A DNA stretch of 64,000 bases, from contig OX597819.1 in the NCBI GenBank assembly GCA_951406725.2, positions 6,138,001 to 6,202,000 on the forward strand. The letters run 5' to 3'. The notes below the pieces were generated by a model. The model was not told the DNA's origin. It saw only the letters and a program-made list of their open reading frames with translations, and did not search any database. Each line of letters opens with the position of its first letter. The stretch's first letter is position 1. A program made the position numbers and the translations under genes. This DNA is from Octopus vulgaris. Lineage: Eukaryota. Below are positions 7,999 through 52,982 of the stretch, one piece after another.

Positions 7999-8385
7999 GT
8001 TGTGGAGGCGCAATGGCCCAGTGGTTAGGGCAGCGGACTCGCGGTCATAGGATCGCGGTTTCGATTCCCAGACCGGGCGTTGTGAGTGTTTATTGAGCGA
8101 AAACACCTAAAGCTTCACGAGGCTCCGGCAGGGGATGGTGGTGATCCCTGCTGTACTCTTTCACCACAACTTTCTCTCACTCTTACTTCCTGTTTCTGTT
8201 GTACCTGTATTTCAAGGGGCCGGCCTTGTCACTCTCTGTGTCACGCTGAATATCCCCGAGAACTACGTTAAGGGTACACGTGTCTGTGGAGTGCTCAGCC
8301 ACTTACACGTTAATTTCACGAGCAGGCTGTTCCGTTGATTCGGATCAACCGGAACCCTCGTCGTCGTAACCGACGGAGTGCTTCC
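7999..8385 (+). mobile_element. SINE family A
   Basis: full length; TSD ATACGCTTCC(T/A)GTTGTCA at 7981-7998 and 8386-8403. Confidence 0.92.
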
Positions 8386-19267: not shown

Positions 19268-20197
19268 GCGTGTGTGTTTTTTTTGAGAAACTTCAAAATT
19301 GTTAATTTCTTATCTACAATGAATAAATTTTAACTCCTCTATTTGTAACACGTATTTCAGTTAATGTTTAATTTGGTTTTGATATATTTCTCTATAAATT
19401 TTATAAATCTTGTAAGTCGATACATTAAAATTATATATAAATGGCGGTGTCCCAGCATCGCCACAGCTCGTGAGCTGAAACTAGATAAATTAAAAAAAGA
19501 ATATATACAAATACTTACATACGTTGATGAACGTATTCATATCTATATTGGTATATACATTTATATATCTCAATGAAGCAGATATATGTATATATACACT
19601 TCCATTTTTTCTTATGCATATACGTATTGATATATATAGATATATATGTATCCCATTATAAAGAGAGTTATTGATATATACTGATAAAATGTTAACGCAA
19701 TGTTGATAAAACAAATAATGTTGAAAGGTAAAAGAAAAATTTCTCACTGAAAGAGGAGAAGCAGAAATAAATAATAAAAGTTAAAAGTAGTAATGGAAAT
19801 ATTGGGAGATATTGGGAGAAAAACGACAGGAGTTTAAACAGTTGAGAAATAGGAATACATAAGTAATATCTATATGTGTTTAGAGAGAATGGGAGACATG
19901 ACAAAAAGGAGTTAAGATCCAAGAAAAAATATATACTTAGAGACAGTCGAACGGGAGTACAGTGTGCGCGCGTGCCCACACACACACACACGTATACATA
20001 TATACACAGCATGTGTGCGTGTGTGTGTGTTTAGAGAGGGAAGCATAGATACCATTCGTTATTATTGTTCATACATAGATGAAAGAAATGAAACTCCGTA
20101 CAAGTCTCACCAATAATATTTGGTGCTAATATTTGCATCAAGTTATCAATCTATGAAGGATACGTAGTAGTGGCTGTGTGGTAAGTAGCTTGCTAAC

Positions 20198-22311
20198 GCA
20201 CATGCGCAATTAGTCAGCTGCTTCCTGTTCAGCCAGAGTGGACGCGAGTCAATCAGCTCTGTCCAATTAAAGAAAAAAAACCAAAAACGGAAAGTTGTCG
20301 TGGTAAGTGATTTTGTTTATTGTGAGTTGGGCATAATTTATTGCGTGCCAATTATTATTTCAGTAGGTTGTGTCCAACTCTGAGGCAATTTCGCCTGCTC
20401 TCGGCGGCTGCCGTTTTTGTGCTCATTGAAAAAAAAAAGAAAAAACAGTGGAGGGGCGTATCCTCAGAATTCAATACAGTTACTGTTAAAATTACTGTTG
20501 GCGGTAGCCAGTGCTGTGTTTGGGTTTGTTGAATTTATTCCCTTGTCAGAGTACTTCGCATGAAAATTATAAAAATAAGCCACTATTGGATTACCTTTCG
20601 GACCCATTTTTGTGGAGGTTGTGTTGCAGTTGCGGCGTTCCAGGTTCAACCCAGGCCGGGAGTACCGCAAGGCCAGAATATTTTTGCTGTGGTTTTTCTG
20701 TTTATTAACTTTCTTTTGAACTTGATTTAACCCCCCCTTTTGTTTTTTTTCTTTATTGCGACTTTCCGTTAATTTCTTCCCTTCTGTTGTGCTTTCTCCT
20801 TTTTGTTTTTTCAAAAATCTATCAATTTTATTTGGACTTTTGAACTTTTTCTTCCTGCTTTTGAGTTTAATTTGAATATATTTAAAAAAAAACATGGCAA
20901 TGAAAAATAACAAAATTTTGGAATGGGAAATCATACCACCTAAAAAATGGTTAAAAGACCGTGAAGATAGGACGGTGGTGTTGAGAACCTACTCCAAGGC
21001 ACTTGACACCATCGCCCTATTCGAAAAGACGGCAATTGAAAAGGAGTTGGAAGAGTATTTGCCAAAAATTAAATTCATTTCCAGGGGTGTCAAATATGCA
21101 ACGGTGTGGTTGCTATTTGACACCCCTGAAGAGGCTTGCAAATTTGCTAGCAAACCCTTGGAGGGTAAGGAAATCTTATTCCTGCCCACGTACAAAAAAA
21201 AGAAATTGATGAAAGCTTGGATCTGCGGACTGCCACCCGACATAGAACCCGAGTGGATAGAGGAGACTATCCGCTTGGGTTGGGTCAAAAGCAATTTTGA
21301 CCCTGTGGACCCAATCAGCCAATCTGGTTCTTCCAGATTTTTTGAAAATGACCGGGTGCAGGTACCCGGTGATGCTTGAGGGTCGCCCCCCTAAGTGTCA
21401 TCGGTGCTTGGAGTCCGGCCACATAAAGAAGAACTGTCCTCGGGAACAAAATAGGATCCCGGAATAGTTAAGTAAAACCCCTCTAGAAGAGGGAACGATA
21501 ACGGCCGAGAAAGCAGAGGACTCCTCAAACAGAGGCCGAAAGAGGAAGGTGAGCAACAATGGATGCTCACCAAAGGATAATAGGGATGAGGAGAGGAAGG
21601 CGAATCTTCCAGCCACGGAGGAGACGCACCCTCCCTCAGTTGAAAAGGGAAAAAAAAGAAAAAGAGGAAGAAAAACGGGACATTACCGGCTGTCAGTGTA
21701 GCACCGGAATGTCGCGGAACTACGTCGGTTGGGGTTGTGCCACCGACAAGAGAAAGAATACCGTTGGCGGAAACTGTGCCGCCAACGAAAGAACTGAATG
21801 TATTGGTCCTCTTCTATAGAGGAGGAGAAATTGAAAAAGTGATGGAAGAGCACTACAAGGGAGCACCTTTAGCCTTCACAGAGGACCCCGAATGGCCTCC
21901 GCAGGTAGCTGTGGAGGCCGTGGCGTTCGACATGACGCTAGGGCTAAAGGAGCTCAATGAAGATTATAACTTGGTCCTGGGCGACGCGAACTCGGAACTT
22001 GACTACGTTCTGAGGGAGGCGTGGTTGATGGTGGAGGGCGCGGGCACAAGCTATTTCGAGGACGATATGTATTATTAGTAATGGACTTAAGTCCCCAAAT
22101 TGTAAAAATTGTAAGAGGTTTAATACCTCGTTTTGTGTTTATCTTTTTAAAAAGAACAATGTGTTAGAGAAGCAAAAGTCGGCGGGCGCTTTCTGTCTTC
22201 TCCCATCCTTATCATCTTTCTTTCATTATCATTCACCTCATTAATGTCCTCGTCCAGCCCGCAAAGCTAACTTAATCTGTGTACTGCCTGTATGGCAAAT
22301 GTTTTGAAATA
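20198..22311 (+). mobile_element. ORF1-only non-LTR retroelement (Tx1/L1-type gag-like, HAL1-like), non-autonomous
   Basis: 15-bp TSD AAGTAGCTTGCTAAC at 20183-20197 and 22312-22326; ends at AATAAA; single disrupted ORF; no APE or RT motifs. Confidence 0.8.
20894..22078 (+). pseudogene. disrupted ~390-aa ORF1/gag-like nucleic-acid-binding protein
   Basis: 161-aa ORF with RRM-like WICGLPPDIEPEWI; frameshift near 21365 into GRPPKCHRCLESGHIKKNCP (CX2CX4HX4C, 21396-21437); TAG at 21465; second frameshift near 21645 into KGKKKKKRKK..., continuing to the 21737-22078 ORF. Confidence 0.78.
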
Positions 22312-22462
22312 AAGTAGCTTGCTAACCAACCACATGGTTCCGGGTTCAGTCCCACTGCGTGGCATCTTGGGCAAGTGTCTTCTGCTATAGCCCCGGGCCG
22401 ACCAATGCCTTGTGAGTGGATTTGGTAGACGGAAACTGAAATAAGCTCGTCGTATATATATT

Positions 22463-22694
22463 AGGCGGCGAGCTGGCAGAAACGTTAGCACGCCGGGTGA
22501 AATGCGTAGCCGTATTTCGTCTGCCGTTACGTTCTGAGTTCAAATTCCGCCGAGGTCGACTTTGCCTTTCATCCTTTCGGGGTCGATGAAATAAGTACCA
22601 GTTACGCACTGGGGTCGATATAATCGACTTAATCCGTTTGTCTGTCCTTGTTTGTCCCCTCTGTGTTTAGCCCCTTGTGGGTAGTAAAGAAATA
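22463..22694 (+). mobile_element. SINE family C nested in the internal (AT)n of SINE B
   Basis: GGCGGCGAGCTGGCAGAA head to GTAAAGAAATA tail; SINE B continues on both sides. Confidence 0.9.
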
Positions 22695-23126
22695 TATATG
22701 TATATATATATATATGTGTGTATGTGTATGTGTTTGTGTGTCTGTGTTTGTCCCCCTAGCATTGCTTGACAACCGATGCTGGTGTGTTTACGTCCCCGTC
22801 ACTTAGCGGTTCGGCAAAAGAGACCGATAGAATAAGTACTGGGCTTACAAAGAATAAGTCCCGGGGTCGATTTGCTCGACTAAAGGCGGTGCTCCAGCAT
22901 GGCCGCAGTCAAATGACTGAAACAAGTAAAAGAGTAAAGAGAGAGTAATATGTTTTTTTCTATTTGGATTGAACCCTACTATGGGCACTGGGGATGTTAG
23001 ATCACCGCTTTCTAATAGCCATCGTGGTATACTATTTAAGTCACTGCTTTTACGCATCTCTTACGAATCCTTCTGTGAGATCAGGAATGGTTTTCTTGGA
23101 TTGTGAGGTTTCATTATGTATATATA

Positions 23127-48763: not shown

Positions 48764-49127
48764 ATAGGAGCACTCCGTCGGTTACGACGATGAGGGTCCC
48801 AGCTGATACGATCAACGGAACAGCTTGCTCGTGGAATTAACGTGCACGTGGCTGAGCATTCCACAGACAAGTGTACCCTTAACGTAGTTCTCGAGGAGAT
48901 TCAGCGTGACACTTTGAAATACAGGTACAACAGAAACAGGAAGAAAGAGTGAGAGAAAGTTGTGGTGAAAGAGTACAGCAGGGTTCACCACCACACCCTG
49001 CCGGAGTCTTGTGAAGCTTTAGGTGTTTTCGCTCAATAAATACCCACAATGCCCGGTCTGGGAATCGAAACCGCGATCCTACGACCGGGAGTCTGCTGCC
49101 CTAACCACTGGGCTACTGCGCCTCCAC
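48764..49127 (-). mobile_element. SINE family A nested in the LINE APE region
   Basis: TSD TATCTCT(T/C)CATCAT at 48750-48763 and 49128-49141. Confidence 0.9.
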
Positions 49128-49523
49128 TATCTCTCCATCATGTATGTCTGCAGACAGTCTCCGTGAGAGCAATGCATATAGGTTGATTGCATGCAGACAG
49201 TTCTCCCAAGTATGCAATTTTGGTCTTGCTGTTGTTTGGCAAATGGCCTTTGATGTTCATCAGTAGAATTGGTGTGACGGACAGCTCGGCGGCAGTGGTG
49301 GCCGTCCTTGGTCCATTACTTGTGGTGGTTTTGTGTATGGGAGTACATGACTTAATTTCGTTAGTAGCCATGACAACTGCTGCGTTAACGTTTGTGCAAT
49401 ACTTAAAAAAATGTTGCTGCCTGGCTGCTGCAGCTCGCACCGCATCTGCGCATGTCTTGTTGGCAGTCCTTTTTTTGATATGTACAGGGGTGAGGACTTT
49501 CCTGGACGTGATTGCCTTATTAT

Positions 49524-49904
49524 GGAAGCACTCCGTCGGTTACGACGACGAGGGTTCCGGTTGATCCGATCAACGGAACAGCCTGCTCGTGAAATTAACG
49601 TGTAAGTGGCTGAGCACTCCACAGACACGTGTACCCTTAACGTAGTTCTCGGGGATATTCAGCGTGACACAGAGAGTGACAAGGCCGGCCCTTTGAAATA
49701 CAGGTACAGCAGAAACAGGAAGTAAGAGTGAGAGAAAGTTGTGGTGAAAGAGTACAGCAGGGATCACCACCATCCCCTACCGGAGCCTCGTGGAGCTTTA
49801 GGTGTTTTCGCTCAATAAACACTCACAACGCCCGGTCTGGGAATCGAAACCGCGATCCTACGACCGCGAGTTCGCTGCTCTAACCACTGGTCCATTGCGC
49901 CTCC
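49524..49904 (-). mobile_element. SINE family A nested in the LINE ORF1 region
   Basis: perfect TSD TGCCTTATTAT at 49513-49523 and 49905-49915. Confidence 0.92.
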
Positions 49905-51859: not shown

Positions 51860-52247
51860 GGAGCATTCCGTCGGTTACGACGATGAGGGTCCCAGCTGAT
51901 CCGAATCAACGGAACAGCCTGCTCGTGAAATTAACGTGTAAGTGGCTGAGCATTCCACAAACCACGTGTACTCTTATCGTAGTTCTCGGGGAGATTCAGC
52001 GTGACACAAAGTGTGACAAGGCTGGCCCATTGAAATACAGGTACAGAAATACAGAAACAGGAAGTAAGAGTGAGAGAAAGTTGTGGTGAAAGAGTACAGC
52101 AGGGTTCACCACCACCATCTGCAGGAGCCTTGTGAAGATTAAGGTGTTTTCGCTCAATAAACACTCACAATGCCCGGTCTGGGAATCGAAACCGCGATCC
52201 TACGACCGCGAGCCCGCTACCCTAACTACTGGGCCATTGCGCATCCA
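51860..52247 (-). mobile_element. SINE family A
   Basis: TSD CCCTTG(A/C)AATACACT(A/G)TA at 51842-51859 and 52248-52265. Confidence 0.9.
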
Positions 52248-52982
52248 CCCTTGCAATACACTGTACTATTATAAGAAAGGATACAGTAAACAGAATAATC
52301 TTAAAGACTGGATGAACGCCTTTAATCGTGGATCAGCCTCGAGGGACCTAAACAATAACTGCATCAATTTAAAATACAATGCTTTCTAAAGTAAAATGTT
52401 ATATTGTATCATTTTGATATACAATACAATGAATCGCGAGATGTAATGTTACGCTAGAACATTTCTATTCAAAATAAACTTCATACCAATGGAGATTGTA
52501 CTATAATTTCACTGTTTGTATTTATTTAAAAAAGAATAAATTTTAAATGAATGTTGATTAAACAATCTGAATTGTTTCACATTCGTATTCAATGAAACGA
52601 TGACAAATTAAATACTAGAGTGAAGAATTATTGTTGTATGCATAATAAGTCTTACAAAGTGAAAACGAAAAACTGTTAAAAACCCCGGCATATGTAAATA
52701 TATTCATTCCAGTTGCTGAATATGCATTCGCCTGAGAAAGCACTCAGTGGAACTGACAGGAGCACTATAATATAACCATTACGTACATAGCCTCCCCACC
52801 ACACACTGAAATATATATTTTCTATCTACCTCTTCAAATAAGAAAGAGTTTTGCAATTTACAAGATTAAAAGTCTAACTTATTCATTAGTGCAATGGTGG
52901 TCATGTTTTAACCCCGTTATTGAACATCATTGACTGGTATAAAAATTAACGGTATGCTATTACATTATTTCCTGGTATTCCA

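Follow-up and report, generated by a model that had tools for sequence, protein, structure and literature searches.

Within the window, the 64,000-nucleotide stretch of Octopus vulgaris DNA that was analyzed, the 15-mer AAGTAGCTTGCTAAC is found at positions 20183-20197 and again at 22312-22326, bounding an insert of 2114 nt. An earlier sequence-only reading of the window had described an insert of about 2.1 kb that splits a SINE, and alignment to uninterrupted SINE copies confirms this, with the flanks on either side rejoining as a single SINE head. The 15-mer itself occurs 8 further times in the window at ≤2 mismatches, compared with 0.18 occurrences expected by chance. No tandem repeat was found inside the insert, and the repeat search of the whole window was dominated by microsatellites. 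The features of the locus are listed in Table 1.

Table 1. Features of the SINE-embedded insert and its flanks (positions in the window)
Feature	Position	Strand	Remarks
Host SINE head, 5' part, with A-box-like TGGCTGTGTGG	20161..20182	+	Target-derived; aligns with uninterrupted SINE copies; C/T variant linked to 3' target subfamily (p=0.002)
Upstream copy of the 15-mer	20183..20197	+	True duplication possible for the initial ~9-10 nt; final ~6 nt element-carried
5' leader, 696 nt	20198..20893	+	Initial ~350 nt swapped between subfamilies
ORF1, broken in the window copy	20894..22078	+	59-nt deletion, TAG, 1-nt loss; 412 aa in the unbroken natural copy L012
Two predicted RRM-like domains	20933..21390	+	Residues ~14-102 and ~103-183 of the unbroken copy; model pLDDT 89; Foldseek and VIA-align RRM matches
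CX2CX4HX4C zinc knuckle	21393..21440	+	Pfam zf-CCHC, E 7e-4
Lys/Arg patch across an A-run	21644..21676	+	Commonest frameshift site among assembled copies
3' UTR, without poly(A) tail	22079..22311	+	
37-nt 3' terminal motif, common to the autonomous partner	22275..22311	+	78% identity over 37 nt
TGCC-N5-GGCA hairpin within the 37-nt motif	22285-22297	+	Folds in element and partner; CGCC/GGCG double change in the second autonomous family
Target core (22312-22326) and rest of host SINE head and body	22312..22460	+	SINE alignment

The leader proved to be close to the ~700 nt first read, and the single ORF carries the two frameshifts and one stop that had been described. A deletion of 59 nt near 21273-21285 causes the first frameshift and cuts the second predicted RRM-like domain, a 1-nt loss within the A-run near 21650 causes the second, and the nonsense codon is a TAG at 21465-21467. 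The protein had been reconstructed at ~390 aa; a natural unbroken copy (L012) shows it to be longer, and open frames of 416-422 codons were present in at least 21 of the 150 scored loci. The 3' UTR had been described as ending at AATAAA; the motif does stand at the end, but its last two bases belong to the target, the first two bases of which complete it (…GAAATA/AAGTAG). The leader of the window copy contains 8 T-runs of 5 or more, which disfavors Pol III read-through. GCGCATG-like motifs occur near the 5' end in the leaders of several subfamilies (window 20198-20210; L037, L044, L107, L110), and these may correspond to a Pol II promoter site of the NRF-1 type.

The host SINE is abundant, its head is of borderline tRNA likeness, and it may be akin to the tRNA-derived SINEs described from octopus (OR2 and kin; Ohshima and Okada 1994), of which OR2 has been named an octopus CORE SINE (PMC4758252). 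The split had been placed in the anticodon-arm region. Alignment to a tRNA shows that this region holds only the 5' junction, whereas the 3' junction, which is invariant, maps to the D-loop right after the A box. Compared with tRNAs from 30 loci, the SINE head reached a best score of 54, with shuffled sequences averaging 38 and reaching a maximum of 55; box-like motifs are visible by eye. Neither ARAGORN nor Rfam called a tRNA in the SINE head, and none of the 30 tRNA loci, which are few relative to all tRNA genes, contained the target core.

The predicted architecture of the ORF1 protein is two RRM-like domains followed by a CCHC knuckle. Such an arrangement fits type I ORF1 (2 RRM and CCHC), as distinguished from the mammalian coiled-coil/RRM/CTD type (PMC5203782). 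The knuckle of the sequence-only reading thus stands, although its Pfam match is marginally under the curated cut-off, whereas the single RRM-like region of that reading becomes two in the predicted fold, modeled for the first 208 residues. Pfam returned only zf-CCHC and did not detect the RRMs, and a PDB sequence search with ORF1 returned zinc knuckles only. The VIA-align Z scores of 7 to 9, middling alone, indicate that the domains are RRM-like, not which RRM family they belong to. All named relatives are octopod proteins, the best being 63-72% identical in Octopus sinensis. One O. sinensis protein (P0004), annotated as an integrase-domain protein, contains 47 residues that are 83-85% identical to the start of ORF1 and is likely a gene model running through an element copy.

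The insert belongs to a family of ~215 copies of ~2.2 kb each that encode ORF1 only. A target-free exact 3'-end pattern gave 217 matches (control pattern, 0), and an overlapping pattern that includes target bases gave 213; a DNA search returned 3182 first-look candidates, 40 of which were scored, mostly at 91-98% identity. Rows beginning with cgagaggctgagtgct were internal false matches and were left out of the counts. Forty of the 217 ends were fetched, namely, 7 that the pattern with target bases had missed and 33 further ones picked by their order in the list, and in all 40 the SINE core adjoins the element at the identical base, so the proposed targeting of SINE heads holds throughout this sample. 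Among the fetched copies, 4 had no recognizable 5' site and 1 was a 106-nt internal deletion, the others measuring ~1.9-2.6 kb. Within a set of 80 short elements, 79 were 1.9-2.6 kb long (median, 2219), and a search for ORF2 similarity gave 0 matches; both the lack of endonuclease and reverse transcriptase in the insert and the existence of a multicopy ORF1-only family, as first suggested, are therefore borne out. Exchange between subfamilies affects the 5' leaders and, beyond them, the first half of the ORF. A generic junction pattern had 1191 matches (control, 1) and exact empty target sites number 76,256, so that ~1.5% of such sites are occupied. The first 20 newly sampled generic junctions in the list comprised 9 ORF1-only elements, 7 autonomous elements, and 4 short pieces.

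The same base is occupied by autonomous elements. One of these, a 5.45-kb element present in several loci, encodes ORF1 and an ORF2 with APE, RT, and zf-RVT (Pfam Exo_endo_phos, RVT_1, and zf-RVT); a search for an ORF1-plus-ORF2 element with the same 3' end had been proposed, and the one recovered shares the target base too. In one copy (L094), the frames of ORF1 and of the 1150-aa ORF2 are both unbroken. The layout, with ORF1 and an ORF2 that has an APE endonuclease, an RT, and a C-terminal zinc finger, is that of the L1/Tx1 group, and the best solved relative of ORF2 is human L1 ORF2p (E 4e-53, versus 5e-20 for R2). The element appears Tx1-like by its type I ORF1 and its target specificity (40/40 autonomous ends), traits that are typical of Tx1 and not unique to it; homologue and atlas searches brought up no reference named as Tx1. 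This family has 104 exact 3'-end matches and a second autonomous family has 52, with the SINE site used by 20/20 sampled ends in each case; at least 3 autonomous families occupy the site, any of which might be the donor. Tandem arrays that mix autonomous and ORF1-only units were found at L018/L045, L021/L046, L022/L048, L077, and L112, and L044 is a four-unit tandem array.

Homology links the ORF1 protein of the 5.45-kb element to that of the ORF1-only family (29% identity over 195 aa, E 9e-25), and the CCHC knuckle is found in the former as well. At the DNA level, the last 37 nt are the only notable match between the two (E 0.036 alone). The 4-bp hairpin within them is fully paired in 43 of the 51 parsed ends. 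The case for the hairpin rests on this conservation, because the 3' 50-mer folds better than its shuffles in the autonomous element alone (z -2.1, compared with -0.5 for the window copy and -0.7 for the D family). The 5.45-kb element is likely the partner of the ORF1-only family.

Substitution patterns point to purifying selection on ORF1, acting on the lineages that spread, so the dN/dS comparison proposed in the sequence-only reading came out in its favor. Between distant ORF1-only subfamilies, dN/dS is 0.105-0.113, with synonymous sites near saturation (pS 0.69), and between closer ones it is 0.12-0.24. Among 67 copies of the main family, variants present in ≥3 copies give a dN/dS of 0.11, compared with 0.72 for singletons (Fisher p=3e-6); the singletons are themselves slightly below neutral (p=0.08), and nonsense codons occur in 16/67 copies. 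Such selection on spreading lineages matches what would be predicted if ORF1p were used in cis. In one short-read run, two contigs cross the three commonest frameshift runs gap-free, and 0 of the 12 indels listed are in the ORF, a hint only that many of the assembled frameshifts are perhaps long-read errors.

In a tree of 33 ORF1 rows, with a root for drawing only, 17 ORF1-only rows drawn from families 38-83% identical (L072, which had no ORF1 match, was dropped) stand together with the O. sinensis protein opposite the 5 autonomous rows. The branch dividing the two has a support of 100/99 and a length of 1.5, and the ORF1-only rows may have one origin. This division bears on the possibility that the short copies are recent internal-deletion products of an unseen autonomous element, with ORF1 conserved only through the need of that parent. 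Such a parent might be sought in the part of the genome beyond the sample, which covered 150 scored loci among 12,225 first-look ORF1 candidates. The depth of the dividing branch, the finding that no sampled element couples the ORF1-only type of ORF1 to an ORF2, and the selection on shared variants within the ORF1-only family all oppose this explanation, which we consider unlikely.

The sequence-only reading had taken the two 15-mers to be a perfect 15-bp target site duplication (TSD) and, as such, proof of movement. This argument is not supported, because the last ~6 nt of the upstream copy track the element subfamily. The two 15-mers are identical in 25 of 65 copies with SINE on both flanks. 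Positions 10-15 of the upstream 15-mer read GCTAAC in 37/39 class A copies, though 15 of the 39 targets are non-TAAC, and CTTACC in 13/17 class B copies. Similarly, full-length autonomous copies kept the upstream TAAC in 18/18 cases, though 6 of the targets are non-TAAC; these 18 are the copies matched by a TAAC-requiring pattern. Conversely, a SINE-head variant located ~18 nt upstream shows linkage with the 3' target (p=0.002) but not with the upstream core (p=0.16). Linkage and class-following together imply that the head is target DNA, that the insertions were independent, and that the end of the upstream repeat is derived from the element. The match in the window copy is perfect because element and target bear the same variant.

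How much of the 15-mer is truly duplicated is suggested by two further observations. An extra T at position 10-11 was seen in 10/83 upstream copies, 0/83 downstream copies, and 0/33 empty SINEs, and also in 6/18 full-length autonomous copies; read as a junction scar, it would imply a true duplication of ~9-10 bp. However, of the private target variants at positions 1-9, 0/7 were present in the upstream copy, a result more in keeping with a 15-mer borne wholly by the element than with a duplication of 9-10 bp, with the reservation that such changes can postdate insertion. The true duplication may be shorter than 9-10 bp or overwritten. Among 19 5'-truncated autonomous copies whose junctions were tallied by eye, 3 have target deletions, 8 have duplications of 0-4 bp, 4 of 7-9 bp, and 4 of 13-16 bp. 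Real TSDs do form, since the long duplications and the 9-bp one in L142 carry the variant of their own target. Judged by their junctions, full-length copies appear not to conform to classical target-primed reverse transcription (TPRT) with a wholly target-derived TSD, whereas some 5'-truncated autonomous copies, and only these, appear to do so. The targets, in contrast to rDNA, are numerous and polymorphic, so that every junction base can be traced straight to its source. An apparently perfect TSD can thus be partly element-encoded, which bears on TSD annotation and on models of 5' joining.

The junctions also argue against a composite SINE, in which one master copy of the SINE would have received the insert and then multiplied jointly with its cargo. 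In line with a composite, the flanks are alike in all sampled copies and the upstream 15-mer travels with the element; but the 3' flanks come from several SINE subfamilies, the head variant goes with the 3' flank and not with the upstream core, the same base holds unrelated autonomous elements and 5'-truncated pieces, and different families are mixed in tandem arrays. A composite origin is accordingly very improbable. Slightly less credible still is the idea that ORF1 is kept for host benefit or as a dominant-negative restrictor of the partner instead of for mobility in cis: purifying selection by itself does not identify the beneficiary, and mammals are described as having a domesticated LINE-1-derived gene, L1TD1, but selection is seen only on variants common to several copies, copy-private changes are near neutral, and the occurrence of nonsense codons in about a quarter of the main-family copies is the pattern of a mobile lineage. 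An origin as processed pseudogenes of a host RRM-zinc-knuckle gene, to which the frequency of RRM and CCHC domains in host proteins and the annotation of some homologues as octopus genes might point, is equally implausible given the absence of a poly(A) tail, the fixed target, the homology of ORF1 to that of the partner, the selection on spreading lineages, and the best 150 genomic matches, which are single contiguous blocks. An intron-split pattern, absent from those 150, was one of three outcomes named beforehand as speaking against the ORF1-only reading; ORF2-bearing copies (0) and random insertion sites were likewise not encountered among the sampled copies.

We are therefore confident, short of certainty, that the window insert is a broken 2.2-kb ORF1-only non-autonomous LINE-type element that inserts at a single base in the SINE head; its movement is likely by TPRT, through the ORF2 of the autonomous 5.45-kb element at the same base. 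Independent movement follows from the varied target subfamilies, the tandem arrays, and the common site; mobilization in trans would be by the ORF2 of the partner. The passenger's own ORF1p would package or coat its RNA in cis, which would account for the selection. The ORF2p of the partner would bind the 3' hairpin common to both elements and nick the bottom strand at GTGGT^AAGTAG, just past the A-box-like motif. Because target bases complete the AATAAA, transcripts likely extend into the SINE, and this read-through part could pair with the target to prime precisely; such annealing of read-through RNA at the nick has been proposed for R1 (PMC2718515). The top strand would be cut at a variable position, up to ~16 nt downstream. 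Full-length RNAs would start a few bases within the old captured copy of the target, with the 5' join falling around position 9-11. With the RNA starting inside the captured target, each insertion would rebuild a complete upstream site, and elements would stack in tandem.

Parts of this system are known separately, in the form of ORF1-only HAL1, of repeat-targeting Tx1 elements with a passenger, and of R1-type junction mechanics. HAL1 (half-L1) of mammals is non-autonomous and encodes ORF1p only (PMC5753468). The octopus family is HAL1-like: its ORF is homologous to LINE ORF1, ORF2 is absent in 80 elements, and the whole unit has multiplied while its ORF was preserved. It falls outside HAL1 proper, which is derived from mammalian L1 and has a type II ORF1 (Transposase_22), since only zf-CCHC and two RRM-like domains are present, in place of coiled-coil/RRM/CTD. 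It also differs in being strictly site-specific, in lacking a poly(A) tail, in having a 3' motif common to its partner, and in its origin within an octopus lineage. The target-specific Tx1-clade LINEs (Tx1 in Tx1D, Keno, Kibi, Koshi, and Tx1-Mar) are likewise APE-type and repeat-targeting, and the SINE head is outside the targets named for them in the available part of PMC4494074. According to the same source, Tx1-Mar targets a DNA transposon, and SINEU-3 has the same target and forms tandem copies. SINEU-3 is a snRNA-headed SINE, whereas the octopus passenger is protein-coding, and its site use is given as 90%, compared with 80/80 sampled octopus ends.

R1 of Drosophila, as described in PMC2718515, has an invariant 3' junction, a ~14-bp duplication, and tandem arrays at a rebuilt site, and in melanogaster-type R1 the target sequence in the transcript anneals at the 5' junction. 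The octopus system is alike in its invariant 3' junction and in its tandem arrays at a rebuilt site. However, R1 is autonomous and targets 28S rDNA, whereas the octopus element is non-autonomous and targets a SINE head; furthermore, melanogaster-type transcripts bear sequence from upstream of the cut, whereas the octopus element bears sequence from downstream of it, which mimics a TSD. By analogy, the octopus system may work like a HAL1 riding a Tx1-like LINE. No SINE-specific element and no cephalopod ORF1-only element was found in the literature searched (subscription journals, Repbase Reports, and supplements excepted), and within that literature what appears to be new is the combination of a SINE-head target, a protein-coding passenger lineage, and an element-borne pseudo-duplication.

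More broadly, we lean, if only somewhat, toward an old three-tier parasite system in octopods, composed of a SINE, LINEs that insert site-specifically and disrupt the SINE promoter at one base, and an ORF1-only passenger radiation of long standing that keeps its own RNP protein. All of the elements would have a captured 5' target that guides the 5' join and rebuilds the target, and ORF1p would be the passenger's cis tool in competing for borrowed ORF2p. The SINE head is added to the known targets of site-specific LINEs, and the system would offer a natural test of an open question, the role of ORF1p in cis when ORF2p is supplied in trans. Since apparently intact copies of partner and passenger exist, an assay would be feasible for an APE-type integrase that is specific to a single base and has a 37-nt cis signal.

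Several further observations concern the diversity of copies. Tiny versions of 106 nt (L059), 65 nt (L098), and 163 nt (L095) retain the 3' end together with the target-like beginning at the 5' side; they are possibly SINE-like minimal passengers and, if so, would map the cis signals. In a recombinant subfamily (L051, L070, L074, L075, L079, L084, and L086), identity to the main family is ~69% across the 5' two-thirds of ORF1 and 94-96% across the final third. A tandem duplication of ~65-70 nt is present in the 3' UTR of L003, L005, L008, and many other copies and absent from the window copy. The 5' ends of L054, L062, and L072 are unexplained. At G000:C1:223689304-223706766, seven junctions are spaced by 5454 nt and then five times by ~2000 nt, corresponding to an autonomous copy and a long tandem run of ~2-kb units, and at G000:C9:2664555-2675460 three autonomous ends lie ~5.4 kb apart. 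Within the window, a second, different SINE-like repeat (22464-22703) lies in the (TA)n of the host SINE, whose tail resumes at ~22692-22938. Finally, another dispersed repeat of at least 336 nt, with 91-98% identity, is found in the window at 2092-2431, 8002-8339, 48912-49904, and 52051-52248.
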